A stretch of 48,686 bases of DNA from a virus (Duplodnaviria; Heunggongvirae; Uroviricota; Caudoviricetes), in the IMG/VR virus record IMGVR_UViG_643348546_000001; one strand, 5' to 3'. Positions 1,072 through 26,433 of the stretch are shown here, piece by piece. Position numbers and translations under genes: made by a program. Every line of letters begins with the position of its first letter. The stretch's first letter is position 1. The notes beneath the pieces were generated by a model. The model made no database searches, was not told the origin of the DNA, and saw nothing but the letters and a program-made list of their open reading frames with translations.

Positions 1072-1267
1072 TTCTGATCCTCTTCAAAAGGCTACCTGTT
1101 ACTGGTCGATTTAAGTCAACCTTTACCGCTGATTCGTGGAACAGATATTCTCTTCCATCCTTAACCGGAGGAGGGAATATCCTGCATTCGCGCACCCATC
1201 GACGAACTGTTTCAAGGCTTCTTGGGCGTCGCTGGCGAGCGTTCCACTCCTGAAGTGTCAAGTACAT
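1049..1267 (-). CDS. xis: Excisionase
   Basis: 72-aa ORF overlapping the int start as in lambda; sequence MYLTLQEWNARQRRPRSLETVRRWVRECRIFPPP matches lambda Xis. Confidence 0.95.
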   Translation of the reverse strand: MYLTLQEWNARQRRPRSLETVRRWVRECRIFPPPVKDGREYLFHESAVKVDLNRPVTGSLLKRIRNGKKAKS

Positions 1268-1561
1268 CGCAAAGTCTCCGCAATTACACGCAAGAAAAAA
1301 CCGCCATCAGGCGGCTTGGTGTTCTTTCAGTTCTTCAATTCGAATATTGGTTACGTCTGCATGTGCTATCTGCGCCCACAGCATCCAGTGGTCATAGCAG
1401 TCGCTGATGTTCTCGGCTTCGATAACTCTGTTGAATGGTTCTCCATTCTATTCACCTGTAACTCGGAAGTGCATTTATCATCGCCATAAAACAAAACTCG
1501 CCGTAGCGAGTTCAGATAAAAGAAAACCCGCATGACCTGCCCCCACGATTAGATACAACAC

Positions 1562-2395
1562 TCAGTTAGTAACGTCGGAATCTTCATTCTCAGAATGACC
1601 CTTTCTCCAGCCCGCTGCAAATTCAGACGGTGTCTGATAATTCAGCGTGGAGTGCGGGCGGCATTCGTTATAATCCTGCCGCCAGTCATTAATAATTTTC
1701 CTGGCATGAACGATATCGCTGAACCAGTGCTCATTCAAACATTCATCGCGAAATCGTCCGTTAAAGCTCTCAATAAATCCGTTCTGCGTTGGCTTGCCCG
1801 GCTGGATTAAGCGCAACTCAACACCATGCTCAAAGGCCCATTGATCCAGTGCACGGCAAGTGAACTCCGGCCCCTGGTCAGTTCTTATCGTCGCCGGATA
1901 GCCTCGAAACAGTGCAATGCTGTCCAGAATACGCGTGACCTGAACGCCTGAAATCCCAAAGGCAACAGTGACCGTCAGGCATTCCTTTGTGAAATCATCG
2001 ACGCAGGTAAGACACTTGATCCTGCGACCGGTGGAAAGTGCGTCCATGACGAAATCCATCGACCAGGTCAGATTGGGCGCCGCCGGACGGAGCAGCGGCA
2101 GACGTTCTGTTGCCAGCCCTTTACGACGTCTTCTGCGTTTTACGCCCAGGCCACTGAGGTGATAAAGCCGGTACACGCGCTTATGATTAACATGAAGCCC
2201 TTCACGGCGCAGCAACTGCCAAATACGACGGTAGCCAAAACGCCTGCGCTCCAGTGCCAGCTCAGTGATGCGCCCTGATAAATGCGCATCAGCAGCCGGA
2301 CGGTGAGCCTCATAGCGGCAGGTCGACAGGGATAAACCTGTAAGCCTGCAGGCACGACGTTGCGACAGACCGGTCGCATCACACATCAACATCAC
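1562..2395 (-). CDS. IS3-family transposase OrfB (DDE integrase-like catalytic domain)
   Basis: 277-aa ORF with a non-ATG (GTG) start; its frame is open upstream to about 2455 and overlaps the orfA end in the -1 frame, consistent with programmed frameshifting; DDE-type motifs ([15 protein letters not shown]). Confidence 0.85.
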
Positions 2396-2418
2396 GGCTT
2401 CCCGCTTCTGGTCTGTCG

Positions 2419-2682
2419 TCAGTACTTTCGCCCAAGAGCCACCTGAAGCGCCTCTTTATCCAGCATGGCTTCGGCAAGCAGCTTCTTGAGTCTGGCGTTC
2501 TCTTCCTCAAGCGACTTCAGGCGCTTAACTTCAGGCACCTCCATACCGCCATACTTCTTACGCCAGGTGTAAAACGTGGCATCGGAAATGGCATGCTTGC
2601 GGCAGAGTTCACGGGCGGGTACCCCAGCTTCGGCTTCGCGGAGAATACTGATGATCTGTTCGTCGGAAAAACGCTTCTTCAT
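2419..2682 (-). CDS. IS3-family transposase OrfA (HTH DNA-binding, leucine-zipper-like C-terminus)
   Basis: 87-aa ORF; HTH-like N-terminus and heptad leucines ([20 protein letters not shown]) typical of IS3-family OrfA. Confidence 0.85.
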
Positions 2683-2788
2683 GGGGATGTCCTCATGTGG
2701 CTTATGAAGACATTACTAACATCGGGGTGTACTAATCAACGGGGAGCAGGTCACGCACTCGGCGGGTTCGCATTCGTTCAAATTGCGT

Positions 2789-3070
2789 TTACTTCTTGGC
2801 GTTCTGTTCATCCATATCGATATACCATGGGTTGCTTCCCTTGGGCATGTTTAACGACTGCTCGCGATAGTATCTGATGCGCTCCATGAAATACTCGCGT
2901 GAGTGCTCAGGTTGCTCTCATGATACCTGCTCAGTGATAACAGGTATGTTAAGGCGCTCTCTGTACTCCATGCCTGATGCTGCAAGGTCAACGTTTACCT
3001 TGTTCTGTTTTTCTTTCGATTTCTCGGCGATGTTATGCCTGACATTGTCAACCCGCCTCCTTCTGAACAT
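2789..3070 (-). pseudogene. Small ORF (about 93 codons) interrupted by one in-frame TGA; divergent copy of the element at 15080-15328
   Basis: Translation [92 protein letters not shown]; aligns with the TGA-interrupted ORF at 15080-15328 but the stop lies at a different codon. Confidence 0.45.
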
Positions 3071-3332
3071 AACGGTTATAAATCAGTCCCTGAGGGCCAT
3101 AAGGAAGCGGGATGTGCAACTCCTCTGGTTCAGAAACTATCCATTCCCCGGCCATCTCCGCTGGAGAGGTAATGATAAGTTGTTTGCTAATAAAAGGACC
3201 ACTCCTCTCAACAACAAGCTTACCATCTTCATTAATAAAAGCTTGGATGTCAGGTGTGCTTCCACACTTGGTGATGCAGCGTTTGAACATTTTGTGTCCC
3301 CCCATTTTATGGACGGGGTAATTATAACACAT
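3048..3332 (-). CDS. Hypothetical protein (start uncertain)
   Basis: 94-aa ORF in the sense orientation of the leftward early operon; its C-terminus (NRYVQKEAG) resembles the C-terminus of the 250-aa protein at 14316-15068 (NNVYAPKKE). Confidence 0.3.
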   Translation of the reverse strand: MCYNYPVHKMGGHKMFKRCITKCGSTPDIQAFINEDGKLVVERSGPFISKQLIITSPAEMAGEWIVSEPEELHIPLPYGPQGLIYNRYVQKEAG

Positions 3333-3416
3333 TGAAATATAGTAATATTTGACGTAGATTTCTTTTGATCTATAAGCGATTTTTTAATGCTTTTAAGTTA
3401 TAAATACTTGTTTTCA

Positions 3417-3992
3417 TCACCCATCTTGCTGCGGTGCTACTATTGAAAAGTACTCACACCCTTTAGCCCAAATAGTTTTGATAGTTGTCCAACTGACTGG
3501 AACCTTGATTTCGATTCTTCCGCTGCCGTCACAAGTTTCGCAATCATCATCACCAAAGCATTCCGGGCAGCTTATAAACGTAGTTTCTGAAAATTCACCG
3601 GATAGCACACCCTTAGCGCCGTTCTCAGCGGTTAGTTTCTTCGGCACTATAACCCAACCATCCGGAGTTACCGGAGAGTTGCCATTTATATCGAAGTTTG
3701 GCTCTGCGTCCTGAACCAGGAGGATGTAACCATTCTTGGCAGTATCAAGTTCTAACGCCTCGGTGACGGTACCGAAATAGCGATTACCTAAATCCGCATC
3801 ACAAGTGCTTACATCAATGGAAACCTCCATGCCTTCGATTAATTCTGGCAAGTTGTAAGTTTGGCTTACAGGTTCTGCTCCCAGTGATGCCAGTGCAATT
3901 CGTGCCAGTTCCATTTGTTCGCCACGAGTAAGCCCGTTTTCAAGCGGATTTTTAATGAACAATTCAATACGTTCTTTGGTAATAGTGGTCAT
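3417..3992 (-). CDS. Hypothetical protein with C-terminal CxxC...CxxC zinc-ribbon-like motif
   Basis: 191-aa ORF in the leftward early operon; CPECFGDDDCETCDGSG near the C-terminus; no family recognised. Confidence 0.55.
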   Translation of the reverse strand: MTTITKERIELFIKNPLENGLTRGEQMELARIALASLGAEPVSQTYNLPELIEGMEVSIDVSTCDADLGNRYFGTVTEALELDTAKNGYILLVQDAEPNFDINGNSPVTPDGWVIVPKKLTAENGAKGVLSGEFSETTFISCPECFGDDDCETCDGSGRIEIKVPVSWTTIKTIWAKGCEYFSIVAPQQDG

Positions 3993-4002
3993 TTGTTAGT
4001 CC

Positions 4003-4758
4003 TTAAACTGCTAGTTGCAATTGCATTTCAAAGCGGTCGCGTTGTTCACAATACGCAAGAGAACCAGGGCTATTGTGTGCCTCAATCCGTTCTACCATTA
4101 ATGCTGCGCGTGTCTCTTTACTTGCAGGTGCATAAGCCCCAGACCAGGCTTTATCAATACCGATGTTTCGAGCGACGTTCGTACTATCTGCGCTGGCTAA
4201 GGGTAATTTTGTGAATATCAGCGGATTTAACATGCGCAATCCATGTAGTTTCGTAACCGGCTGACCATGCCCATCAACAATGTGACGAATCAGGTCTTTC
4301 ATTCTGGCTACCGCAAGAGTTGGGCGCTTTACGTCATAGTCGCCACAACTACCGATAGCCACTCGCGGAAACTCATTGCACAAATGAATAAATCGCTCGT
4401 CACTTTCATTCATGTGCCACACTGGAACGCCAGCTAGTTTTCCGTGAGGCCACTCATTCAGAAGCGCATCATTTTCCTCCTCTCCGCCATCAATAACATC
4501 CGGGATAATGGCAAAATCGAATCCTGGGTGATTCTTCCAGCGAGCAACAAAATCGTAGTAATCGCTCCAGTCGATTTTGTTTTTGCCAGCTGCTTTCCAG
4601 GCGGTGAATGCACCGTTGTCCAGCGCGAACGACTGACAGTATTCAGCCGCGAGATTGATCTGGCCTGAATGCGCAAAACTGATAAACGCATGTCGCCCTT
4701 TCCATGCTCTCATTGCGCACGTATCAGGAGTAATAGGCCCACCGTGGTAGTGAATCAT
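4003..4758 (-). CDS. Hypothetical protein (251 aa from the RBS-supported start)
   Basis: ORF 4003-4800; the internal ATG at 4758 is preceded by AAGGAG and sits 1 nt after the upstream gene's stop, so that start is preferred; no family recognised. Confidence 0.55.
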   Translation of the reverse strand: MIHYHGGPITPDTCAMRAWKGRHAFISFAHSGQINLAAEYCQSFALDNGAFTAWKAAGKNKIDWSDYYDFVARWKNHPGFDFAIIPDVIDGGEEENDALLNEWPHGKLAGVPVWHMNESDERFIHLCNEFPRVAIGSCGDYDVKRPTLAVARMKDLIRHIVDGHGQPVTKLHGLRMLNPLIFTKLPLASADSTNVARNIGIDKAWSGAYAPASKETRAALMVERIEAHNSPGSLAYCEQRDRFEMQLQLAV

Positions 4759-4759
4759 C

Positions 4760-5167
4760 TCACTCTCCTTTGATGCGAATGCCAGTAGCGCGGATTGCAT
4801 CGATGACTTCAGAAACTTTGTATGCCATTACCGTTTGGTAATCATCGTGAAAATCTGTTCGATGAAGCATGCTGCTACGTTCCGGGAGCAGTATTTCCCG
4901 CGCTTCCAATTCTGCAATGCGCTTTTTTGCTGCTTCCAGTGCATCCAGTAATTCCAGCACGGTAGCCGGATTAGCCTTGGCAACAAAATCCCGGACTGGC
5001 TTACAATCAATCTCCGCAATGGGTTGATACGATGTGTAGCCATGCTGTCTTGTATAACTACCGTGACGAATAACGAAAAAATCACCATTTATTTTTTTAG
5101 CCTGCCACTTATCTTCACCGGCTTTCTCTGCCGCTTCACGCAGTGCCTGAGAGTTAATTTCGCTCAC
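4760..5167 (-). CDS. Ea22-like protein (C-terminal Ead/Ea22 domain)
   Basis: 135-aa ORF; PATVLELLDALEAAKKRIAELEA and the C-terminal GIRIKGE match the remembered lambda Ea22 C-terminal region. Confidence 0.65.
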   Translation of the reverse strand: MSEINSQALREAAEKAGEDKWQAKKINGDFFVIRHGSYTRQHGYTSYQPIAEIDCKPVRDFVAKANPATVLELLDALEAAKKRIAELEAREILLPERSSMLHRTDFHDDYQTVMAYKVSEVIDAIRATGIRIKGE

Positions 5168-5385
5168 TTCGAACCTCTCTGTTTACTGATAAGCTCCAGA
5201 TCTTGCTGGCAACTGGCACAAGTCCGACAACCCTGAACGGCCAGTCGTCTTCGTTCATCTATCGGATCGCCACACTCACAACAATGAGTGGCAGATATAG
5301 CCTGGTGGTTCAGGCGGCGCATTTTTATTGCTGTGTTGCGCTGTAATTCTTCAATTTCTGATGCTGAATCAATTATGTCTGCCAT
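5164..5385 (-). CDS. DksA/TraR-family C4 zinc-finger protein
   Basis: 73-aa ORF with CCECGDPIDERRRLAVQGCRTCASC (CxxC-N17-CxxC); near-identical to the lambda gene at the same position. Confidence 0.8.
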   Translation of the reverse strand: MADIIDSASEIEELQRNTAIKMRRLNHQAISATHCCECGDPIDERRRLAVQGCRTCASCQQDLELISKQRGSK

Positions 5386-5483
5386 CTTTCATTAATCCCT
5401 GAATTGTTGGTTAATACGCTTGAGGGTGAATGCGAATAATAAAAAAGGAGCCTGTAGCTCCCTGATGATTTTGCTTTTCATGT

Positions 5484-5699
5484 TCACCGTTCCTTAAAGA
5501 CGCCGTTCAACATGCCGATCGCCAGGCTTAAATGAGTCGGTGTGAATCCCATCAGCGTTACCGTTTCGCGGTGCTTCTTTAGTACGCTACGGCAAATGTC
5601 ATCGACGTTTTTATCCGGAAACTGCTGTCTGGCTTTTTTGATTTCAGAATTAGCCTGACGGGCAATGCTGCGAAGGGCGTTTTCTTGCTGAGGTGTCAT
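5484..5699 (-). CDS. Lambda orf61-like small protein
   Basis: 71 aa from the ATG at 5699 (MTPQQENALRSIARQANSEIKKARQQF...); lambda-like position and sequence. Confidence 0.6.
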   Translation of the reverse strand: MTPQQENALRSIARQANSEIKKARQQFPDKNVDDICRSVLKKHRETVTLMGFTPTHLSLAIGMLNGVFKER

Positions 5700-5775
5700 T
5701 GAACAAGCCCCATGTCGGCAAGCATAAGCACACAGAATATGAAGCCCGCTGCCAGAAAAATGCATTCAGTGGTTG

Positions 5776-5967
5776 TCATACCTGGTCTCTCTCATCTGCT
5801 TCTGCTTTCGCCACCATCATTTCCAGCTTTTGTGAAAGGGATGTGGCTAACGTATGAAATTCTTCGTCTGTTTCTACTGGTATTGGCACAAACCTGACTC
5901 CAATTTGAGCAAGGCTATGTGCCATCTCAATACTCGTTCTTAACTCAACAGGAGATGCTTTGTGCAT
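5776..5967 (-). CDS. Lambda orf63-like protein (DUF1391 family)
   Basis: 63-aa [26 protein letters not shown]...; matches the lambda orf63 family. Confidence 0.65.
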   Translation of the reverse strand: MHKASPVELRTSIEMAHSLAQIGVRFVPIPVETDEEFHTLATSLSQKLEMMVAKAEADERDQV

Positions 5968-6128
5968 ACCGTCTCCCGTTTATTATTTATCTTCTCAGCC
6001 AGCCGCTGTGCTTTCAGTGGATTTCTGATAACAGAAAGGCCGGGAAATACCCAGCCTCGCTTCTTAACGGAGTAGACGAAAGTGATCGTGCCTACGCGGA
6101 TATTATCGTGAGGATGTTTCATCGCCAT
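5940..6128 (-). CDS. Lambda orf60a-like small protein
   Basis: 62-aa [34 protein letters not shown]... immediately downstream of exo in the early-left operon. Confidence 0.6.
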
Positions 6129-6799
6129 TGCTCCCCAAATACAAAACCAATTTCAGCCAGTGCCTCGTCCATTTTTTCGATGAACTCCGGCACCATCTCG
6201 TCAAAACTCGCTATATACTTTTCATTCCGCTCAATCACGACATAATGCAGGCCTTCACGCTTCATACGCGGGTCATAGTTGGCAAAGTACCAGGCATCTT
6301 TTCGCGTCACCCACATGCTGTACTGCACCTGGGCCATGTAAGCCGACTTTATGGCCTCGAAACCACCGAGCCGGAATTTCATGAAATCCCGGGAGGTAAA
6401 CGGGCATTTCAGCTCAAGGCCATTGCCGTCACTGCATAAACCATCGGGAGAGCAGGCGGTGCGCATACTTTCGTCGCGATAGATGATCGGGGATTCAATA
6501 ACATTTACGCCGGAAGTGAACTCAAACAGGGTTCTGGCGTCGTTCTCGTACTGTTTTCCCCAGGCCAGCGCTTTAGCGTTAACTTCCGGAGCCACACCGG
6601 TGCAAACCTCAGCTAGCAGGGTGTGGAAGTAGGACATTTTCATGTCAGGCCACTTCTTTCCTGATCGGGGCTTTGCTATCACGTTGTGAACTTCTGAAGC
6701 GGTGATGACGCCGAGCCGTAATTTGTGCCATGCATCATCCCCCTGTTCGACAGCTCTCACGTCGATCCCGGTACGCTGCAGGATAATGTCCGGTGTCAT
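6119..6799 (-). CDS. exo: Lambda exonuclease (Red alpha)
   Basis: 226-aa ORF near-identical to lambda Exo ([40 protein letters not shown]...). Confidence 0.97.
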
Positions 6800-7581
6800 G
6801 CTGCCACCTTCTGCTCAGTGGCTTTCTGTTTCAGGAATCCAAGAGCTTTCACTGCTTCGGCCTGTGTCAGTTCTGACGATGCGCGAATGTCGCGGCGAAA
6901 TATCTGGGAACAGAGCGGCAATAAGTCGTCATCCCATGTTTTATCCAGGGCGATCAGCAGAGTGTTAATCTCCTGCATGGTTTCATCGTTAACCGGAGTG
7001 ATGTCGCGTTCCGGCTGACGTTCTGCAGTGTATGCAGTATTTTCGACAATGCGCTCGGCTTCATCCTTGTCATAGATACCAGCAAATCCGAAGGCCAGAC
7101 GGGCACACTGAATCATGGCTTTATGCCGTAACATCCGTTTGGGATGCGACTGCCACGGTCCGGTGATTTCTCTGCCTTCGCGGGTTTTGAATGGTTCGCG
7201 GCGGCATTCATCCATCCACTCGGTAACGCAGATCGGATGATTGCGGTCTTTGCGGTAAATCCGGCATGTGCAGGATTCGTTGTCCTGTTCAAAGTCCATG
7301 CCGTCAAACTGCTGGTTTTCGTTGATGATGCGGGACCAGCCATCAACGCCCACCACCGGAACGATGCCGTTCTGCTTATCAGGGAAGGCGTAAATTTCTT
7401 TCGTCCACGGATTAAGGCCGTACTGGTTGGCGACGATCAACAATGCGATGAACTGCGCATCGCTGGCATCACCTTTAAATGCTGTCTGGCGAAGAGTGGT
7501 GATCAGTTCCTGTGGGTCGACAGAATCCATGCCGACACGTTCAGCCAGCTTCCCAGCCAGCGTTGCGAGTGCTGTACTCAT
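6796..7581 (-). CDS. bet: Recombination protein Bet (Red beta, single-strand annealing)
   Basis: 261-aa ORF near-identical to lambda Bet; 4-nt overlap with exo. Confidence 0.97.
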
Positions 7582-7586
7582 CCGTT

Positions 7587-7883
7587 TTATACCTCTGAAT
7601 CAATATCAACCTGATGGTGAGCAATGGTTTCAACCATGTACCGGATGTGTTCTGCCATGCGCTCCTGAAACTCAACATCGTCATCAAATGCACGGGTAAT
7701 GGCTTTTTTGCTGGCCCCGCAGCGTTGTAAATGATCGATGCAGAGCGATTCAAACAAATGCTGGGGCAGGCCTTTTTCCATGTCGTCTGCCAGTTCTGCC
7801 TCTTTCTCTTCACGGGCGATCTGCTGGTAGTGACGCGCCCAGCTCTGAGCCTCAAGACGATCCTGAATGTAATAAGCATTCAT
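7587..7883 (-). CDS. gam: Host-nuclease (RecBCD) inhibitor Gam
   Basis: 98-aa ORF matching lambda Gam ([21 protein letters not shown]...VDIDSEV); the lambda upstream extension (MDINTET...) is absent. Confidence 0.95.
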
Positions 7884-7959
7884 GGCTGAACTCCTGAAAA
7901 TGGCTGTGAAAATATCGCCCGCGAAATGCCAGGCTGATTAGGAAAACAGGAAAGGGGGG

Positions 7960-8250
7960 TTAGTGATTCAGGCCGTTACCGCGTCCGTCGAGAAAAACTT
8001 CCACGAGCAAATCACGGGTATAAGTGCGCTCGATGCCGCGATGCAGATAAAGCCGTCCGCGTAAATTAGCTGATGCAGTCCAGGTACCATCTTTGTGTTT
8101 GACCAGCATTCCTGGCATGACCGCACCTCGATTAACGGTCTGCGTTCCGTAATGTTGATGAACCATAAAAACTCCTGCCCGTAAGCTGGGCTGCTGAACA
8201 TATAAAGACTTCTGCGCGTATTCAGGCGGTGGATGGCCGCCGGTTGTCAT
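7960..8250 (-). CDS. Hypothetical protein at the kil/cIII position (start uncertain)
   Basis: ORF 7960-8370 begins with TTG; first ATG at 8250 gives 96 aa (MTTGGHPPPEYAQ...GRGNGLNH); C-terminus differs from lambda Kil (...SKSIH). Confidence 0.35.
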   Translation of the reverse strand: MTTGGHPPPEYAQKSLYVQQPSLRAGVFMVHQHYGTQTVNRGAVMPGMLVKHKDGTWTASANLRGRLYLHRGIERTYTRDLLVEVFLDGRGNGLNH

Positions 8251-8439
8251 AACTAAGCCGCCTCGTTGAAGCGACTGAGGTATGAAGTGTTGAGTTGATT
8301 TCAGCTGGTCACACCGACGTTCACGCGTCCGCTTCACCCCTCGCACTCCCCGGAGCCTGCTGAAATTCAAGCTGCGGATCTAAGCGGTCATCGCAACGGT
8401 GAATCAGGTGATTGCCGTATCGTTGTGTTGTTGCGACAT

Positions 8440-8500
8440 GGTGATAATAGCTATTGCTATTGATGATATCAATACTTATTGCTATTGCTAGATGTGTTTT
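8440..8500 (-). promoter_or_regulatory. Putative PL promoter with operator repeats (OL)
   Basis: On the minus strand: -35 TTGATA, 17-nt spacer TCATCAATAGCAATAGC, -10 TATTAT; spacer and flanks carry the TTGCTATTGCT / TAGC-N4-GCTA motifs also found in the cI-cro intergenic region. Confidence 0.55.
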
Positions 8501-8644
8501 GATATTAAATATTTGATAGCAAAAAGAATTAATTTTGTGACTTGCATCGCATAGCGATAACTGAAGCGGGGTTGTGGTGGTTTTTTGAACGGTGTGTGTG
8601 ATGAGGGGAGGCAAAAGAAAACCCGGCACGGTGGCCGGGACGTT

Positions 8645-9157
8645 TTATTTCAAAGAAAAATTATGACTAGCGTATCTTGGAAGAAATTCATATAGTGTTA
8701 ATGTCTTAACGCCGTGAGAAGCAGCCGCATCCGGGATCATTATTCTTTTTTTAGGTTTGCCACCGGATGGTTTCTCATGGGTAATAATAGTATATCCATG
8801 TGTCATCGCATGGGCTATTAAAAAAGCATCTGCTTTTTCATGGCTTGCAAAATCAAACTTTGCCTTTTCGGTAACATCTAATTTAGTTGACCAATTTATT
8901 AACTTTGCATAATTTTCTATTGAACTATGCTCATCTTCGAAGAATGATGATGGTAACTCTTCTTTAATCCATTTACACAATGGATCATCTTTTGCACATA
9001 GTTCTTTTTTTACAGCATTAATGCTATAAATCAGACCATTAATGTGTAAAGCGAGAAGAAAATCCCAAAATATTTTGCAATAATTGAAGTTATATGCAAA
9101 GTTTTTTGCCTCTATGAAGACATTACTATCAATTAAGAATTTTCCATTATGAATCAT
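8645..9157 (-). CDS. PIN-like nuclease-fold protein (DUF4411-like), predicted toxin/effector
   Basis: 170-aa ORF; N-terminal FLIDSNVFIE and later acidic/Thr positions (ADAFLIAHAMTHGYTIITHEK) fit a PIN-like pattern; overlaps the upstream gene's stop by 4 nt; very AT-rich. Confidence 0.6.
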   Translation of the reverse strand: MIHNGKFLIDSNVFIEAKNFAYNFNYCKIFWDFLLALHINGLIYSINAVKKELCAKDDPLCKWIKEELPSSFFEDEHSSIENYAKLINWSTKLDVTEKAKFDFASHEKADAFLIAHAMTHGYTIITHEKPSGGKPKKRIMIPDAAASHGVKTLTLYEFLPRYASHNFSLK

Positions 9158-10293
9158 AGAGATTCTCGTTTTTTATAAAATTCAACAACTGTATCTGCTT
9201 TTACATTTAGCAGTACGCCTGCTTCCCTTAATGGTAATTGTTGAGACATTGCTTTGGAAATTATTATATTCGTAAGTTTTGGACTGTTACGAACAGGTAA
9301 TGTGTTAAAGAAAGAACCACCATTAGATTCTTTTTTGGGCTTATTGTAAGCTTGATCTTTAATTATCTCCAAAGTGTTTCTTTCTATCAAATCTAATTGT
9401 AACGCTTTGATTGCACAAGCGAAATCACTAACCTTAAATAACTTAGAAACCTCTTTTACTCGATAATAATTATTATCGCTGGATGCATTAAGCCAGAAAG
9501 ATTTGAAGAGATTATCAGGCATTAAGATTTCAGCAGCAACTTTATTACAAAAAGATTCTATGTTTTTTTCTGTGTCCCACCCAGAGACTCCATCGACTCC
9601 AAGCCAAAGATGAGCCACCTCATGAAATAATGTAAATACCTGCGCAGATAACGCGTCCGAGCTATTTACAAAAATGATCGGAGCAACGCTATCAGATATA
9701 CAGAAACCACGAAACTCTCGCGTGTCAAGTTTTCTTTTATTATTATTACCCACAACACCATTCTTGAAAACTAATACGCCAGTGTCTTCTATTAATTTTG
9801 CCACTTTAGAAAAATAGCTCTCAAAAGTGACATTTTTTATCTCTTTTTGTATATCAAAATGTATTGTGTTTGCTATGTCTGTAGCAACAACCTTATAATT
9901 TAATTTTCTATTAAATTTAAATTTACCAATAAAATCGAGTGGATCATCATTACCATTTTCTCTTAAATAGTCTTTGTACCACTCAAGTTTATATTCTATA
10001 TCATAGTAAACATCAAAAAAATCTTTTCCTAACTCACGGCTATTTATAGCTTGCCTTAAGTCAGGGATCTTGGGTTTGGCTGGAGTTGGTGGCGTTTCAA
10101 GAAATAAAAAACCGAAAGGGATTCCTCCAATTTTTGCCAGTTTTTCTGCTGCGGATTTACTTACCACTCCGTTAAGAAATTTATTAATCTTTTTGGGCAT
10201 GACTTGGTCAGCAAGAGTTTCGATAGAAACTCCTTGAGAATTTGCTATCCAATCAATCATCTTCCTAGACAATTGAAATTCAACCGCTGCCAT
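9154..10293 (-). CDS. HTH-domain / ImmA-IrrE-family (COG2856-like) zinc metallopeptidase protein
   Basis: 379-aa ORF; HExxH motif (FHEVAHLWLG) in the middle, HTH-like N-terminal segment; AGGTGA RBS 4 nt before the ATG; very AT-rich. Confidence 0.65.
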   Translation of the reverse strand: MAAVEFQLSRKMIDWIANSQGVSIETLADQVMPKKINKFLNGVVSKSAAEKLAKIGGIPFGFLFLETPPTPAKPKIPDLRQAINSRELGKDFFDVYYDIEYKLEWYKDYLRENGNDDPLDFIGKFKFNRKLNYKVVATDIANTIHFDIQKEIKNVTFESYFSKVAKLIEDTGVLVFKNGVVGNNNKRKLDTREFRGFCISDSVAPIIFVNSSDALSAQVFTLFHEVAHLWLGVDGVSGWDTEKNIESFCNKVAAEILMPDNLFKSFWLNASSDNNYYRVKEVSKLFKVSDFACAIKALQLDLIERNTLEIIKDQAYNKPKKESNGGSFFNTLPVRNSPKLTNIIISKAMSQQLPLREAGVLLNVKADTVVEFYKKRESL

Positions 10294-10422
10294 GTTATCA
10301 CCTAGTTAAAAAAAACTATTATTCAACAATTATTGTTGTGCACCTGATAGCTAACGTCAAGCCTAATTTATTGCCTTACTACAGTAAGCTGAAAAGCGAA
10401 GTGCATAATTTTGTTCTGATTT

Positions 10423-11115
10423 CTACCCATGCTTTCTATATGTCTGCGGCATGCTCCCGATGACTTTCCCGAAGATGAACACGCGGTTCATCTCGTCTTT
10501 CTCGATCGGGTCCCACGGTGAGTAGCTCTTGTTATCAGAGATAACCAGCAGCTTATCCTTCATCATTTGCAGGCGTTTTACATGGGCGGTGTCGTCATAC
10601 AGAAACGCATAGATACCATCACCGTCGAAAGATTTAACCGTGATATCAACGAACAGCAGATCACCTGGTTCGATCGTTCCTGACATGCTGTCACCACGCA
10701 CGTTAATGATGCGGATATTTTCCGCCTTCCTGCCATCGAACATGTGACGAGCATCGTCAAACGAGTATTCAACCGAGCGTAGAACTTCTACAAACTCACG
10801 GTTGATTACACCCGGCCCGGCACTGACTTCTATATCAAGAACGTCAATTTTGAAGTATTTGGAATGGCTGACAGCAGGCTTCCCTGATTGTTGACCGTCA
10901 TTTCTCATCGGGCCTATGCCTGAAGAGAGCCATTCTGTTCGAACACCCAATGCATTAGCTATTTCAACAATTTTTGTTGAGCCGCGCGCGTTGCCGCTTG
11001 TCAGTCTCCAGATTGTGGGTTGAGCTACGCCAGACGCCTTTGCAAGAGCGCCTTGAGACATTCCAGATTGTTCCATCGCTAGATTTAAGCGATCAGCAAG
11101 AGTTTCTTTTTTCAT
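10423..11115 (-). CDS. cI: CI-like prophage repressor (HTH + S24 LexA-like autopeptidase domain)
   Basis: Start assigned to the ATG at 11115 (the longer ORF starts with TTG); N-terminal HTH (LADRLNLAMEQSGMSQGALAKASGVAQPTIWRL), C-terminal Ser/Lys dyad context (RGDSMSGTIEPGDLLFVD ... KRL); not lambda cI by sequence; mRNA appears leaderless from PRM. Confidence 0.85.
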   Translation of the reverse strand: MKKETLADRLNLAMEQSGMSQGALAKASGVAQPTIWRLTSGNARGSTKIVEIANALGVRTEWLSSGIGPMRNDGQQSGKPAVSHSKYFKIDVLDIEVSAGPGVINREFVEVLRSVEYSFDDARHMFDGRKAENIRIINVRGDSMSGTIEPGDLLFVDITVKSFDGDGIYAFLYDDTAHVKRLQMMKDKLLVISDNKSYSPWDPIEKDEMNRVFIFGKVIGSMPQTYRKHG

Positions 11116-11225
11116 AAGTTTTAATTTATACGCTTGCGTATTGATGGTCAAAACACGTTTTGCTATTGCTTGGATTAATACGCATTGCTATTATTCATTC
11201 ATTGCAATACCAATAGGAATTGATA
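11116..11225. promoter_or_regulatory. Divergent PRM/PR promoters with operator repeats (OR)
   Basis: PR (plus strand): -35 TTGCTT 11166-11171, 17-nt spacer, -10 TATTAT 11189-11194. PRM (minus strand): -35 TTGACC (11144-11149), 17-nt spacer, -10 TAAATT (11122-11127), placing the transcript start about at the cI ATG. Palindrome TACGCTTGCGTA 11129-11140 and TTGCTATTGCT-type repeats. Confidence 0.6.
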
Positions 11226-11453
11226 ATGACAAATCAAACCATTCAACTCGCAATCAGTATTACAGGCAGTCAAAAACGACTGGCAGATCTATGCGGTGTA
11301 GCCCAACCCACAGTTTGGCGTTGGCTACACGGTGGCGGAATTGATGCCCGCTATGTAATGAAAATTGTCTCAGCCACTGGTGGAAAGATTAAACCAGCAG
11401 ATATTCGTCCCGACCTCGCACCATTGTTTAACGCGAGTAATTCTGCCGCCTAA
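11226..11453 (+). CDS. cro: Cro/YdaS-like HTH regulator
   Basis: ATG at 11226 after AGGA; HTH-like QKRLADLCGVAQPTVWRWLHGG; first gene of the rightward operon opposite the repressor. Confidence 0.8.
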   Translation: MTNQTIQLAISITGSQKRLADLCGVAQPTVWRWLHGGGIDARYVMKIVSATGGKIKPADIRPDLAPLFNASNSAA

Positions 11454-11477
11454 ACTGCGGCGTTAACTGATAAGGCA

Positions 11478-12023
11478 ATGACTATGCAACCACTTACATA
11501 CCAACAGACTAGCGGATTTAGCCCGACTGCGGTGATAAATCGTTCTCAAACAAAACAGGTGGCAGGCCACGAAAAAATCCGTGATGCCGTCCGCGCCTGG
11601 TCGGCTGTAGATAATCAGGATGTCGTTGCCACACTCATTGTGAATGAGTATCGGGAGCAGGGCGGCGGCACCATCGATTTCCCTGATGATGTCAGCCGTG
11701 CACGCCAGAAGCTGTTCCGCTTCCTCGATAACAAATTCGATTCTGAAAAATACCGAAATAACGTGCGTGAACTGACCCCGGCAATTCTGGCGGTACTACC
11801 GCTGGAATATCGCGGTTACCTGGTTGAGCAGGATAGCTTCATGGCTAGGTTGGCTGAAATGGAAAAGGAACTCAGTGAGGCAAAACAGGCTGTCATTCTC
11901 AACGCACCACGCCACCAGAAACTGAAGGAAATTAGTGAAGGTATTGTATCGATGTTTCGTGTGGACCCAGATCTGGCTGGTCCATTGATGGCGATGGTTA
12001 CTACCATGCTGGGGGCGATATGA
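11478..12023 (+). CDS. YdaT-family protein (CII-position regulator)
   Basis: 181-aa ORF; NEYREQGGG...RELTPAILAVLPLEYR parallels remembered Rac YdaT (EEYLRQGGG...QKLIPAILAILPRELR). Confidence 0.6.
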   Translation: MTMQPLTYQQTSGFSPTAVINRSQTKQVAGHEKIRDAVRAWSAVDNQDVVATLIVNEYREQGGGTIDFPDDVSRARQKLFRFLDNKFDSEKYRNNVRELTPAILAVLPLEYRGYLVEQDSFMARLAEMEKELSEAKQAVILNAPRHQKLKEISEGIVSMFRVDPDLAGPLMAMVTTMLGAI

Positions 12024-13039: not shown

Positions 13040-13737
13040 AAAACATCGCCGCACAGATGGTTAACTTTGACCGTGAGCAGATGCGTCGGATCGCCAACAA
13101 CATGCCGGAACAGTACGACGAAAAGCCACAGGTACAGCAGGTAGCGCAGTTCATCAACGGTGTATTCAGCCAGTTGCTGGCAACTTTCCCGGCGAGCCTG
13201 GCTAACCGTGACCAGAATGAACTGAACGAAATCCGCCGCCAGTGGGTGCTGGCTTTTCGGGAAAACGGGATCACCACAATGGAACAGGTTAACGCTGGAA
13301 TGCGCGTAGCCCGTCGGCAGAATCGACCATTCCTGCCATCACCCGGGCAGTTTGTCGCCTGGTGCCGGGAAGAAGCATCCGTTAACGCCGGGCTGCCAAA
13401 CGCCAGCGAGCTGGTTGATATGGTTTACGAGTATTGCCGGAAGCGTGGCCTTTATCCGGATGCAGAGTCTTATCCATGGAAATCAAACGCGCACTACTGG
13501 TTGGTTACCAACCTGTATCAGAACATGCGGGCCAATGCGCTGACTGATGCGGAATTACGGCGCAAGGCTGCCGATGAACTGACTTGTATGACCGCGCGAA
13601 TTAATCGTGGTGAGGCGATACCTGAACCAGTAAAACAACTTCCTGTCATGGGCGGTAGACCACTTAACCGGGCTCAGGCTCTGGCGAAGATCGCAGAAAT
13701 CAAAGCTAAGTTCGGACTGAAAGGAGCCAGTGTATGA
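13036..13737 (+). CDS. P: Replication protein P (DnaB helicase loader)
   Basis: 233-aa ORF near-identical to lambda P (MKNIAAQMVNFDREQMRRIANNMPEQYDEKPQVQQ...). Confidence 0.96.
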   Translation: MKNIAAQMVNFDREQMRRIANNMPEQYDEKPQVQQVAQFINGVFSQLLATFPASLANRDQNELNEIRRQWVLAFRENGITTMEQVNAGMRVARRQNRPFLPSPGQFVAWCREEASVNAGLPNASELVDMVYEYCRKRGLYPDAESYPWKSNAHYWLVTNLYQNMRANALTDAELRRKAADELTCMTARINRGEAIPEPVKQLPVMGGRPLNRAQALAKIAEIKAKFGLKGASV

Positions 13738-14027
13738 CAGGCAAAGAGGCAATTCTTCACTACCTGAAAACGCACCGGACTTTCTGCGCGCCGGATGTAG
13801 CTGCGGCAACAGGCGTGACTGTAACCAGCATCAATCAGGCAGCAGCCAAAATGGCACGGGCAGGAATCCTGGTCGTTGATCGCAAGGTCTGGCGAACGGT
13901 GTATTACCGGTTCGCTACCAGGGAGGAGCGGGAAGGAAAGGTGAGCACGAACCTGATTTTCAAGGAGTGTCGCCAGAGTGCCGTGATGAAACGGGTATTG
14001 ATGTTTTGGGGGAGGGGAGGGGTATAA
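13734..14027 (+). CDS. ren: Ren exclusion protein
   Basis: 97-aa ORF matching lambda Ren (MTGKEAI.HYL.TH..FCAPDVAA.TG.TVTSINQAAAKMARAG...). Confidence 0.9.
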   Translation: MTGKEAILHYLKTHRTFCAPDVAAATGVTVTSINQAAAKMARAGILVVDRKVWRTVYYRFATREEREGKVSTNLIFKECRQSAVMKRVLMFWGRGGV

Positions 14028-14315
14028 GCGAAACGTTATGAGTGTGTGGGTATTCGTGCCATTGCGATGTGGTAGAGAGTGCTGAGGGCGTCATGGTTGT
14101 GTTGCGAAAACTACGTTGCACTTGAGCAGGATCTTGCAGAATTTGAGCGCGAGTTCCGTGTTGCTGATGCGACTATACCCTCGATGTAGAGGAACTTAAT
14201 TAGCTGATTGTAATTCAATATGCCTACTAAGACCGGTTGGGTATGAACTAGTAAAGGCTGCAAAATCCTATAGAGTGTTAACGCAACCAAAAACGTTAAG
14301 CACGGAGAAAAAAAT

Positions 14316-15068
14316 ATGGATCCTAAATTACTGTATGCCACGTTTAAACGAAATGACGCACCAGCTTGGCGCTGCCCGAACTGTATGAATGAAACACTGG
14401 AGATTGTCGCTGATAGTTTTGTAGAAACTGATTCAAGCGCAACAACTCAGTTTAGAGATGAAGTATGGTTTGATGAGGAAATGTCGGGAGGAGTATTCAG
14501 TTGCGTGCTGCGCTGTACCCGCCAAGCCTGCCAGGAGAAGGTTGCTTTGTCTGGGCAGGTTGTTGCTGTAGAATGCTTCAATGACGAAATGACGGAGCGT
14601 TGGTATGTTTCTGGTTTCCGTCCTAAGTATTTCTATCCACCACTTCCTCTATTCCTGTTTCCTGAAAAGTGCCCTGAAGATATAGCTGATCTCTTGGCGG
14701 AAGTATCAGCTCTGATCCCCTCGCACCCAGCTTCAGCGGTGAACACCATGAGAACCATACTGGAGATGATGCTTGATAGTCTTGATGTACCAAGAGAGAA
14801 AACAGTTAAAGGCAAGATAATACGTCTTTCTACGCATGAAAGAATCACAAATTATTCAGATAAACTGGGACCAAATAAAGATGCATTCATGGCGTTAAAG
14901 TGGTTGGGGAATCACGGCAGTCATGGAGGGATTAAAGTCACAAGGTCCTCTATTAATGATGCCTGCATTCTCATTGGTCATTTGATTGACTTCTTATTCT
15001 TAGAAAGCCCGGATGTAACTATTCATATTGAACGGATAAACAACGTGTATGCACCCAAAAAGGAGTAA
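14316..15068 (+). CDS. Hypothetical protein with N-terminal zinc-ribbon-like CxxC motifs (cargo gene)
   Basis: 250-aa ORF; GGAG RBS before the ATG at 14316; WRCPNCMNE...SCVLRCTRQACQEK cysteine cluster; lies in an insertion between ren and the nin block; inverted repeat TTAACG-N10-CGTTAA just upstream. Confidence 0.7.
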   Translation: MDPKLLYATFKRNDAPAWRCPNCMNETLEIVADSFVETDSSATTQFRDEVWFDEEMSGGVFSCVLRCTRQACQEKVALSGQVVAVECFNDEMTERWYVSGFRPKYFYPPLPLFLFPEKCPEDIADLLAEVSALIPSHPASAVNTMRTILEMMLDSLDVPREKTVKGKIIRLSTHERITNYSDKLGPNKDAFMALKWLGNHGSHGGIKVTRSSINDACILIGHLIDFLFLESPDVTIHIERINNVYAPKKE

Positions 15069-15079
15069 AACGTAACGCC

Positions 15080-15328
15080 ATGTCGAAGCGGAATATTGCC
15101 GCTAAAACACAAGAAGAGCGCGAGAAGGTTAACGTTGACCTTGCTGTCTCCTGAGTTACCTACAAAGAGCGCCTTAATATACCGGTTATTGCCGAAGCGG
15201 TGATGCGTGAGCAGCCTGAGCATTTGCGGGACTATTTTTTGGAGCGGCCACGACATTACCGCGAGCAGAGCATCGCGCTGCCCAAGGCATCCGCTCCTCG
15301 ACATCTTAAGCAGGAAGGTGAAAAATGA
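15080..15328 (+). pseudogene. Small ORF (83 codons) interrupted by one in-frame TGA; its terminal TGA overlaps the ATG of the downstream gene
   Basis: [81 protein letters not shown]; internal TGA at 15152-15154; ATGA overlap with the next gene at 15325-15328. Confidence 0.45.
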
Positions 15329-15807
15329 TAAGTGCAGAAGGACTGCAGCGGTTACTTAATTTATCGGAGCCTCCATCTGATGAACTGATTGATGTTTATC
15401 TTCAATTCTGCATGATTTTTCCTAGGGTCGAGCAAAGTTTTTTTGGTGGCTTTGCTAAGGGGGAAGACAGTTTAAATTATGCGCGAACGTTACTTGACGC
15501 CGGGATAAAGGTGCCCAACGAACTTTTTCACGATTTTAAGCAGAGATACATTTTGAATGGGGATGCGCAGGAAAGACTTGACGCCCTCTGTGTCGGTCGA
15601 GAGAGAGATAGGCGGGGAATAGTTAATGGACTTCAAAATGACGCAGCAACAGATCTAAACACCATGTCTACAGTATTAAAGATAGTTATAAGGATAAGAA
15701 ATAACCTTTTCCACGGAAATAAAGACGCTTATCTTTTTGTTGATTCTCAAGAGCAAGCGCAACTATTGAGGTGGTGCGTGAGATTTCTCCAAGGATTATT
15801 AAATTAA
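15325..15807 (+). CDS. Hypothetical protein with HEPN-like R-x4-H motif (candidate RNase effector)
   Basis: 160-aa ORF; C-terminal region carries [15 protein letters not shown] (R-N-x-x-x-H) as in HEPN-superfamily RNases; start overlaps the upstream small ORF stop. Confidence 0.6.
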
Positions 15808-15996
15808 TCTACCTTTGATTTTCCATAATCAACCAGCAATAATAATGTCACCGGAGCCTGAACAACATCGGTGACTTCTGCGCTAAACGGGGACGTTTAT
15901 GCGCACATACAATCTAAACTCTCTTTTGCTGTCACAGATGCAGAAATGCACCTGCGATTTTTTGCATCCAGCGTTTGACCTCTGCGGAGGTGAATC

Positions 15997-16452
15997 GTGA
16001 ACCTCCTACAAGATGGCATCAAATTGCATCGTGGTAACTTCACCGCTATCGGTCAGCAGATCCAGCCTTATCTGGAGGACGGCAAATGCTTTCGCATGGT
16101 GCTTAAACCGTGGCGCGAGAGACGCAGTCTTTCCCAGAATGCACTCAGCCACATGTGGTACAGCGAAATCAGTGAATACCTCATCAGCAGGGGTAAAACG
16201 TTCGCCACTCCACCTTGGGTAAAAGATGCTCTCAAACACACTTATCTCGGTTATGAAACCAAAGAACTGGTTGATGTCGTAACCGGTGAAATCACCACCA
16301 TTCAGTCATTACGTCATACCTCCGATCTCGATACCGGAGAGATGTATGTCTTCCTGTGTAAGGTTGAAGCCTGGGCGATGAATATTGGCTGCCACCTGAC
16401 TATTCCGCAGAGCTGCGAGTTCCAGCTGCTCCGCGACAAGCAGGAGGCGTAA
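15997..16452 (+). CDS. ybcN: YbcN-like protein of the nin region (DLP12 YbcN family)
   Basis: 151-aa ORF, GTG start after GGAGG; placement and length match DLP12 ybcN preceding ninE-ybcO-rusA. Confidence 0.7.
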
Positions 16453-18059: not shown

Positions 18060-19157
18060 TTAGAACTGGTAAACCAGACCTACAGCAACGATGTCATCAG
18101 TGCTTACACCGAGTGCTTTAGTGAAGTCATTTTTGTCAAGCAGGTTGATTTTGTAATCAACGAAAGTAGACATATTTTTGTTGAAGTAATAGGTTGCACC
18201 TACATCAACATATTTGACTAAGTCCTGATCGCCCCATACTCCAAGATCCTTACCTTTAGATTGCAGGTAAGCAACGGACGGACGCAGACCGAAATCGAAC
18301 TGATATTGTGCAACAGCTTCGAAGTTTTGGGCTTTATTAGCAACGAAGTGATCAGCAAATACAGTCATATTCTGGGTTTCAGAATAGGTAGTGGCCAGGT
18401 AAATGTTGTTAGCGTCATATTTCAGACCTGCGGCCCAAACTTCTGCATTTTTACCGGAAGCAAATACTTCAGGAAGAACTTTCCCTGCATTAACTTGAGT
18501 GTCGGTACGATCAGATTTTGCATAAGTTGCACCGATACCGAATCCTTCGTATTCATAGGTAGCAGAGAAACCGAAGCCATCACCGTTACCTTCGGTGTAG
18601 TTATCGAAATCGCTACGATCGTTTTTGCCTTGGTACTGAGCAGCAAAGTTCAGACCATCAACCAGGCCAAAGAAGTCGTTGTTACGATAGGTTGCAACAC
18701 CAGTGGTGCGACCAGTCATGAACACATCTGTTTGGGTCCAGGTATCGCCACCGAATTCTGGCAGAACGTCAGTCCACGCACCGATGTCGTATGCTACACC
18801 GTAGTTACGGCCGTAATCGATTGAGCCGTAGTCACCGAATTTCAGGCCTGCAAATGCAAGACGGGTTTTGTCTTTGGAGGAACCTTGAGATTCAGCGCGG
18901 TTGCCTTTGAATTCATATTCCCACTGACCGAAACCAGTCAGTTGATCGTTGATTTGGGTTTCACCTTTGAAGCCAAGACGGGCATAAGTAGTATCACCAT
19001 CATCTGCATCATTAGAGGAGAAGTAGTGCTTAGCATTAACTTTCCCGTACAGATCCAGCTTGTTACTGTCTTTATTATAAATTTCAGCTGCCTGAGCAGA
19101 CATCGCCATCAGTACTGATGCAGCTACAGCAGAAATTGCCACTGTTAATTTTTTCAT
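18060..19157 (-). CDS. nmpC: Outer-membrane general porin (OmpC/PhoE family; nmpC / phage Lc type)
   Basis: 365-aa ORF with signal peptide ([23 protein letters not shown]), AEIYNKD start of the mature protein, C-terminal aromatic VGLVYQF; lies between Q and the lysis genes on the opposite strand with an AT-rich promoter region 19158-19700. Confidence 0.92.

Positions 19158-22732: not shown

Positions 22733-26413
<3,681 letters not shown>

Positions 26414-26433
<20 letters not shown>

Follow-up and report, generated by a model that had tools for sequence, protein, structure and literature searches.

A RAZR-like DUF4145 protein, a decayed theta gene and a putative small HEPN-type protein at the ren–ninB junction of an Escherichia coli lambdoid prophage

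RAZR, the ring-activated zinc-finger RNase also known as PD-T7-4 (Zhang et al., Nature 2026, PMC13017515; PDB 9y9c), is a single-gene abortive-infection system in which a conserved linker joins a Cys4 zinc ribbon at the N terminus to a HEPN RNase domain of the DUF4145 type. It forms a 24-mer around phage proteins that are ring-shaped, whereupon it cuts single-stranded RNA non-specifically; its specificity is set by the zinc-finger domain, and both R146 and H154 of RAZR-Ec are essential for defence, which is abolished by R146A (PMC13017515). Another validated single-gene defence protein of Escherichia coli, DS-38 (HEP2, WP_001313577.1), combines HEPN with zinc fingers, and according to its authors DS-38 and PD-T7-4 have only the HEPN domain in common (PMC13092281). 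DUF4145 is itself a HEPN family, and the HEPN signature consists of R-x4-6-H at the end of helix 3, where the loop to helix 4 of an all-alpha four-helix core begins, with a polar residue (N, D or H) after the Arg and an upstream acidic residue in helix 2 (PMC3710099). Here we analyzed a stretch of 48,686 nucleotides (nt) from the IMG/VR virus record IMGVR_UViG_643348546_000001, hereafter the window, which is 100% identical to a lambdoid prophage of E. coli IAI1 (NC_011741, from position 807310). Between its ren-like gene and its nin genes lies an insert with a gene for a 250-amino-acid (aa) protein, an interrupted open reading frame (ORF) of 83 codons and a gene for a 160-aa protein, ORF160. 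We consider it rather probable that the insert occupies a defence-cargo slot of lambdoid prophages and was assembled by recombination from three unrelated pieces: a RAZR-type immunity protein, a dead copy of theta/Hot and the stand-alone 160-aa protein.

According to the ORF list, the 250-aa ORF is located at 14316–15068 on the forward strand. An N-terminal Cys-rich, beta-rich domain (residues 1–107; 14316–14636), presumed from its invariant Cys and its AlphaFold2 (AF2) model to be a zinc-ribbon sensor, is followed by a conserved Pro-rich linker (residues 108–120) and a C-terminal DUF4145-type HEPN domain (residues 121–250; linker and domain together 14637–15068). The Cys cluster seen earlier in the sequence was present as C20-x2-C23, C63 and C67-x4-C72; all five Cys were invariant in 15 of 15 full-length homologues of 32–99% identity, as were R146, E150, K195, G198, N199 and H203. 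Pfam DUF4145 matched residues 132–216 (E 7.9e-12). The AF2 model, built from an 18-sequence alignment with a predicted local distance difference test score (pLDDT) of 86, was beta-rich in the N-terminal domain, up to about residue 107, and helical in the C-terminal domain, with a Pro-rich linker between the two. The N-terminal domain was modeled with five strands, at a block pLDDT of 85–95 for residues 11–110 and 64 for residues 1–10. These data establish the domain content and the HEPN fold of the protein, which would presumably bind zinc. Two unnamed viral proteins matched the model near full length in BFVD (Foldseek; A0A482IIS2, 310 aa, E 6e-7; U3PE05, 236 aa, E 1e-4; 15% identity), so that other phages carry proteins of similar two-domain build.

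RAZR was represented in the comparison by a profile of three full-length family members, all encoded in plasmid or phage records and one bearing the annotation PD-T7-4. The profile of the 250-aa family aligned with this RAZR profile at 90.8% (hhalign, E 1.2e-6) over window residues 101–228, i.e., linker and HEPN domain, starting within the linker (query 101–120 against RAZR-family 72–91) and placing K195 (14898–14900) on the RAZR Arg and H203 (14922–14924) on the RAZR catalytic His. A weak profile match to PDB 9y9c (E 0.4) spanned the same two segments. At the level of profiles, the linker and HEPN domain are thus homologous to those of the RAZR family. RAZR and the 250-aa protein are alike in being one polypeptide with an N-terminal Cys domain, presumed in the window protein to be of zinc-ribbon type, a conserved linker and a C-terminal, divergent DUF4145 HEPN domain, in the spacing of the catalytic pair ([R/K]-x7-H within a GN..H motif), and in being encoded by stand-alone genes on mobile elements. 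They differ in length (250 aa versus about 219 aa) and in the N-terminal domain, which has five invariant Cys (CxxC…C…Cx4C) within about 107 aa in the window protein and Cys4 within about 65 aa in RAZR; unlike the RAZR zinc-finger domain, that of the window protein is no more variable within its family than the HEPN domain. Judged from these alignments, the 250-aa protein is related to RAZR, divergent and under constraint, and has a different, larger sensor domain and a Lys for the catalytic Arg.

The preliminary description could not assign the 250-aa protein to any known family, and Pfam and hhalign now place it as a DUF4145 HEPN protein of RAZR-like architecture. On the same grounds it is the best-supported candidate HEPN RNase of the island, rather than the 160-aa protein to which that role had been given. 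DS-38 was also considered as its identity and was ruled out by accession, length and domain order: at 366 aa, DS-38 has an N-terminal HEPN domain (RNRVVH, R-x4-H) that is not DUF4145, followed by multiple C-terminal zinc fingers, the reverse of the order in the window.

The middle ORF (83 codons; 15080–15328, forward strand) was recognized from Pfam, intact orthologues and the NCBI Prokaryotic Genome Annotation Pipeline as a pseudogene of a phage homologue of the DNA polymerase III theta subunit (HolE/Hot). It matched Pfam DNA_pol3_theta (PF06440) over positions 2–68 of 70, in effect the whole domain (E 5.8e-28), and phrog_1105 (E 3.9e-31); in IAI1 the pipeline labels it ‘DNA polymerase III subunit theta, internal stop’. 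The in-frame TGA reported earlier was confirmed at codon 25 (15152–15154), as was the overlap of its terminal TGA with the ATG of ORF160 (ATGA, 15325–15328). Since the intact orthologues, in Klebsiella and Salmonella prophages, have Gly (GGA or GGC) at codon 25, where the reading frame of the window is broken, the TGA is, on this alignment, a GGA→TGA nonsense mutation and the ORF a decayed theta/Hot gene, not a component of a module. Recoding of the TGA, as selenocysteine or by read-through, was ruled out by its alignment to Gly GGA, by independent lesions in relatives and by the absence of an Rfam match such as SECIS. Further independent damage in relatives comprised an extra frameshift, a CAA→TAA change in an Enterobacter prophage and a 5′ truncation at recombined-in cargo. 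Unlike P1 Hot and E. coli HolE, the window copy is inactivated, by its codon 25 change. Identity to P1 Hot was about 76% for an intact orthologue on a Klebsiella-derived contig, and the 83-codon ORF is 54% identical to what we take to be the HolE sequence. Theta/Hot genes regularly sit just 5′ of ninB in lambdoid phages, e.g., in HK639 and several Klebsiella phages. An invariant AGGAAGGTGA-N5-ATG in the 3′ end of the theta pseudogene provides the Shine-Dalgarno sequence of ORF160, which therefore has a ribosome-binding site of its own.

The lambda-type P/ren homology stopped near position 14001 and homology to the nin region of phage 82 restarted near 15811–15814, so that about 1.8 kb (14002–15813, as delimited by DNA homology) are extra relative to lambda and phage 82. 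An insertion between ren and the nin genes, first put at about 1.9 kb, is thus borne out, and all the ORFs, motifs and overlaps listed for it were found in their places. Of 5426 complete E. coli genomes, 47 had the complete insert, chromosomal in every case, and a DNA-level comparison with 50,697 phage records matched no part of it. In those 47 genomes the trio is kept at ≥99% identity; its genes are co-oriented, with 11 bp between genes 1 and 2 and the ATGA overlap between genes 2 and 3. Such an arrangement would suit a single three-gene addiction or defence operon, in which the zinc-ribbon protein and the small ORF regulate or neutralize a 160-aa HEPN toxin, and one compact defence or addiction module is what the preliminary description had proposed. 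This reading is largely refuted by the comparative data and we find it hardly credible. DUF4145 homologues occur alone, and ORF160 with theta was found in four other backgrounds without the DUF4145 gene; the middle gene is a pseudogene here and was independently inactivated in at least two other lineages with ORF160 intact, and RAZR-type proteins act as single genes.

The separate occurrences were found on several kinds of elements. A homologue of the 250-aa gene, 70% identical, was found alone between gpV and gpS of a P2-like prophage of Serratia marcescens (contig L011, 5001–7813), on the strand opposite to the structural genes and adjoining a Septu-like pair of an AAA_15/AAA_21 ATPase and an HNH protein, and another DUF4145 homologue was found alone in a chromosomal island of S. 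plymuthica. In prophages of Klebsiella, Salmonella and Enterobacter, ORF160 and theta occurred with no DUF4145 gene, and in E. coli OkiPb01694 ORF160 stood behind other cargo, a PRTase+NADAR pair. Obligate co-occurrence, as in a type II toxin-antitoxin system or a multi-gene operon, was not observed. The histories of divergence differed as well. Between the window and a second E. coli prophage (L002), none of the 753 nt of the 250-aa gene differed, compared with 2.8% in the theta pseudogene and 1.7% in ORF160, while the flanks differed by 10.5% (ren), 9.5% (right junction segment) and 4.6% (ybcN). The near-identity of the 250-aa gene and its leader amid diverged flanks indicates a recent cassette exchange between E. 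coli prophages, as far as two genomes can be compared. Together, the separate occurrences and unequal divergences identify the three genes as independent and the insert, in its sequence, as a mosaic of three independently inherited pieces.

The leader of the 250-aa gene (14028–14315, forward strand; 288 bp, non-coding) is a candidate promoter region only, with GGAG 8 nt 5′ of the ATG. It differed by 0.7% (2/288) between the same two prophages. Its co-inheritance with the 250-aa gene points to autonomous regulation, as far as the comparison of these leaders can suggest. The leader contains the previously noted inverted repeat TTAACG-N10-CGTTAA (14278–14283 and 14294–14299, spanning 14278–14299), which was present as described. 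Nine other 6-bp inverted repeats or palindromes were found in the same 331 bp, the chance expectation for 6-bp pairs with spacing up to 40 being about 3 per 330-bp stretch by our own estimate, and the repeat was not conserved 5′ of homologues of the 250-aa gene. Its function as an operator was ruled out on both counts, chance-level frequency and absence upstream of homologues. An RNA element in the leader was likewise dropped, there being no Rfam match and a fold z-score of only −2.3.

The association of theta with ORF160 is wider than the insert. The pair recurred in four genera at 74–80% ORF160 identity and, among enterobacterial temperate phages, in two backgrounds at 33–41%. In a contig related to Yersinia myophages (L036, 442–1182), theta lay directly 5′ of an ORF160-like gene, while the sequenced Yersinia myophages related to it had theta and no ORF160-like gene; in another contig (L035, 1–1017), the order was theta, a gene for a 74-aa protein and an ORF160-like gene. 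ORF160-like genes without theta were found in the same slot in one lambdoid prophage and in Klebsiella phage Kp4856-1. This recurrence might be taken to mean that ORF160 represents a new, widespread family of minimal stand-alone HEPN-like effectors functionally linked to theta, joining a replisome accessory protein with an RNase, in which case theta or the host HolE would neutralize ORF160, or ORF160 would sense when a phage interferes with the Pol III core. We give this proposal little chance. Theta as an obligate partner of ORF160 is weakened by its being broken in at least three ways with ORF160 intact and by the theta-less genes in the slot. Since theta is repeatedly broken, we read the association, on the sequences compared, as mainly positional.

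ORF160 (15325–15807, forward strand) encodes a predicted small all-alpha protein of an uncharacterized family, with the motif R125-N-N-L-F-H130 at 15697–15714. Its only family match was phrog_27260, of unknown function (E 1.8e-93). Close relatives (74–99% identity) were restricted to Enterobacteriaceae prophages, whereas a profile search of 1.84 billion representatives returned 174 relatives at E up to 1e-3, all of about 160–175 aa, and a second search at least 891 clusters at 90% identity. In 61 sequences 19–41% identical to ORF160, residues E36, R74, R123, R125, N127, H130 and K133 were invariant, giving the family signature E…RY…RxRNNxxHGxK, and residue 126, after R125, was N in 52, H in seven and C in two (N or H in 59 of 61). 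The family thus has the R-x4-6-H of HEPN proteins with a polar residue after the Arg, and an upstream acidic residue, E36, in 61 of 61, in which the typical E-x3-[KR] context is not conserved. The AF2 secondary structure, from a model of low confidence (pLDDT 43), was all-helical, the motif ending the penultimate helix (108–129) before a last helix at 142–159. Two of the 61 members matched Pfam HEPN_RiboL-PSP, weakly (E 1e-4), and two UniRef names of family clusters contain ‘HEPN’. In a published screen, the best remote match of the ORF160 cluster was the RiboL-PSP-HEPN protein PD-T4-2_B (HH probability 59.5), and DefensePredictor ranked the cluster (WP_000622057.1, the IAI1 protein) as an uncharacterized predicted defence gene, its mean log-odds of 12.94 lying above the cut-off of 7.2 (PMC13092281).

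In its R-[N/H]-x3-H motif, upstream Glu and small, predicted all-alpha build, ORF160 resembles the HEPN RNase toxins (HepT/DUF86 and RiboL-PSP-HEPN, including PD-T4-2_B). Unlike these, it has no MNT or other cognate antitoxin gene beside it, and the additional invariant R74-Y75, R123 and K133 set it apart as a separate family outside Pfam and NCBIfam. The ratio of nonsynonymous to synonymous substitution rates (dN/dS) was 0.10–0.16, or about 0.13 in summary, with dS of about 0.8–1.5 between genera, and for this reason ORF160 is, by its pattern of substitution, a real gene under purifying selection. From its motif and the published prediction, it is probably a second RNase-type defence gene. 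The 50,697 phage records compared had no ORF160, and only a distant relative was present, in two unverified Klebsiella phage records. Distant members were found on integrative and conjugative elements (ICEs), and the neighbours of distant members included a TIR gene, HTH_73, relaxases and UmuDC. On a Pseudomonas ICE (L017, 3141–5137), a CAP12/Pycsar-type TIR protein, a 165-aa ORF160-family protein and a 183-aa protein were encoded in a tight same-strand trio beside a relaxase gene, and this trio may be a multi-gene system that uses an ORF160-like protein.

Selection also bears on whether the two intact genes are catalytically dead or decaying passengers, the 250-aa protein an inactive HEPN protein and ORF160 a structural or regulatory protein with a coincidental R-x4-H. 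The 250-aa protein has Lys in place of the Arg that RAZR needs, about 20% of DUF4145 proteins are without the canonical motif (PMC3710099), the neighbouring theta gene is visibly decaying, and the fold of ORF160 is not established by its low-confidence model. Against the Serratia copy, however, dN/dS of the 250-aa gene was 0.12 in both domains, and purifying selection was similarly strong on ORF160, with synonymous sites near saturation for both genes. K195, H203, R146 and E150 are invariant across 32–99% identity, the opposite of relaxed constraint, and the motif residues of ORF160 are invariant in 61 sequences down to 19% identity. We therefore regard decay or inactivity as improbable.

Other prophages carried different cargo at the ren–ninB junction, in keeping with the earlier suggestion of probably defence-related cargo at a variable ren–nin site. 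In E. coli OkiPb01694 (NZ_AP042564; L003, 2147–3780), PRTase-like and NADAR genes lay between the P/ren genes and a theta fragment followed by ORF160. Their products were 51% and 82% identical to DS-32A and DS-32B of the validated PRTase + NADAR defence system DS-32 (PMC13092281), whose homologue thus occupies the same prophage slot, with proteins and a mechanism unrelated to the cargo of the window. In an Enterobacter mori prophage (L010, 5875–7776 and 8421–8645), a 633-aa NACHT-domain protein and a DinI homologue were encoded directly 3′ of ORF160, as further candidate defence or SOS-modulating nin-region cargo. With a DS-32 homologue and a NACHT gene at this place, the ren–ninB junction therefore appears, from its gene content, to behave as a defence-cargo slot.

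The same neighbourhood raises the question of whom the cargo serves. One or both proteins might serve the phage, as early-lytic nin-region genes for counter-defence or host takeover, acting by the degradation of defence signalling molecules or of host or competitor RNA. They lie in the early region transcribed from pR with no recognizable promoter of their own, and theta/Hot and DinI are examples of host-modulating genes in nearby nin-region cargo. The distant ORF160 relatives adjoin relaxases and UmuDC on ICEs, and such regions are reported to be rich in anti-defence genes. Nevertheless, the sole characterized relative of the 250-aa protein, RAZR, is a host immunity protein; the P2-like prophage homologue lies opposite to the structural genes, beside the Septu-like pair; a homologue of the validated DS-32 occupies the same slot; and DefensePredictor scores ORF160 as defensive. 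The near-absence of ORF160 from the phage records and the co-inheritance of the leader with the 250-aa gene, which suggests autonomous regulation, also argue against such a role. A phage-serving function is accordingly judged unlikely.

If the insert is defence cargo, as we favour, the 250-aa protein would be a single-gene immunity protein of the RAZR (PD-T7-4) type. By analogy with RAZR, it would rest in the cell as an inactive oligomer until its N-terminal domain bound a multimeric protein of an infecting phage. Binding would shift the geometry of the HEPN dimers or oligomer and activate the HEPN sites, and the activated protein would cut RNA non-specifically, halting translation and aborting the infection. 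Such a sensor in this prophage would have to ignore the resident prophage's own portal, encoded at 24832–26433. The theta pseudogene would have the sole role of carrying the ribosome-binding site of ORF160, and ORF160 would most likely be a minimal HEPN-type RNase acting alone, as a second abortive-infection or toxin-type defence gene. We infer RNase activity and a defence function for the island proteins; the activity, trigger and lysogen expression in this mechanism are likewise inferred.

Several observations weigh against the reading of the insert as defence cargo with a RAZR-type protein. In the N-terminal domain, only the CPxC knuckle aligned with the RAZR zinc-finger domain (hhalign probability 3%), and since a larger sensor domain of no detectable sequence relation to that of RAZR is involved, the trigger of the 250-aa protein is probably different. 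At the RAZR catalytic positions, H203 is present as the His, and the equivalent of R146 is Lys (K195) in 15 of 15 full-length family members; with Lys at the catalytic Arg position throughout the family, the 250-aa protein may differ from RAZR in chemistry or activity. The PADLOC model for PD-T7-4 left the window protein unmatched at E up to 10 and matched one of 18 family members (E 0.026). As to expression, no consensus sigma-70 site was found in the leader, all three genes have the orientation of the pR early operon, and the lysogen expression on which prophage-encoded defence depends has to be presumed. As to ORF160, no match was found in Pfam, NCBIfam, PADLOC or PDB sequences, and the AF2 model from a nine-sequence alignment was unreliable at its pLDDT of 43. 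Nothing was found by hhalign between the ORF160 family and either one RiboL-PSP-HEPN protein or the DUF4145 family, and a link between the two HEPN candidates was dropped on this empty result. The HEPN assignment of ORF160 thus draws on its motif and weak matches. Of the earlier view of the 160-aa protein as HEPN-like, the R-x4-H motif has stood, being invariant across a large family and fitting the HEPN signature, while no significant profile or structural similarity to an established HEPN family was detected. The ICE contexts near relaxases and UmuDC would also suit counter-defence or host-takeover genes.

RAZR was characterized only in 2026, and a natural relative with a larger Cys domain and Lys at the catalytic Arg offers a test of which features of ring activation are general; it also bears on what other phage structures can be sensed. 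The ORF160 family is large, absent from Pfam and ranked by a machine-learning screen among the strongest untested defence candidates of E. coli. If the proposed function is true, the 160-aa ORF160 would be one of the smallest single-gene systems, and the question would be how a bare HEPN domain is kept silent. A functional link of theta and ORF160, if true, would represent a new trigger logic for abortive infection. The locus presents the ren–ninB junction of lambdoid prophages as an exchangeable defence slot, which in related prophages holds a DS-32 homologue, a RAZR-like gene or a NACHT gene.

The early-right genes of the prophage were ordered as P, ren-like, insert, ybcN, ninE, ybcO, rusA, ylcG, quuD, a porin gene and lysis genes (IAI1 annotation), and this region is a nin region of the phage-82/DLP12 type. 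To the left, the insert is flanked by the ren-like winged-helix gene (13734–14027, forward strand), which the IAI1 annotation gives as wHTH and whose DNA was 87–88% identical to the ren genes of many lambdoid phages. To the right, the junction (15808–15996, forward strand) had phage 82 nin homology from about 15811, a small orf33-like ORF and a terminator-like hairpin (15939–15956). It is followed by the NinB-position gene ybcN/orf151 (15997–16452, forward strand), so named in the IAI1 annotation and with a weak Pfam NinB match. Small orf33-like ORFs and the hairpin with its T-run separate ORF160 from ybcN at 15871–16000, and this segment is homologous to phage 82, where X92588 annotates promoter signals and a possible regulator-binding site.

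Elsewhere in the window, the immunity region (9154–12023) encodes an ImmA/IrrE metallopeptidase and an XRE repressor, which is not of the lambda CI type, followed by a gene with a YdaT toxin domain (11478–12023). An IS3-like element, ISSen4, is also annotated in IAI1 within the part that corresponds to window positions 1–12000. An OmpC/NmpC-type porin gene of 365 aa (18060–19157, reverse strand), a classic lambdoid moron, is located between the Q antiterminator gene and the lysis genes.

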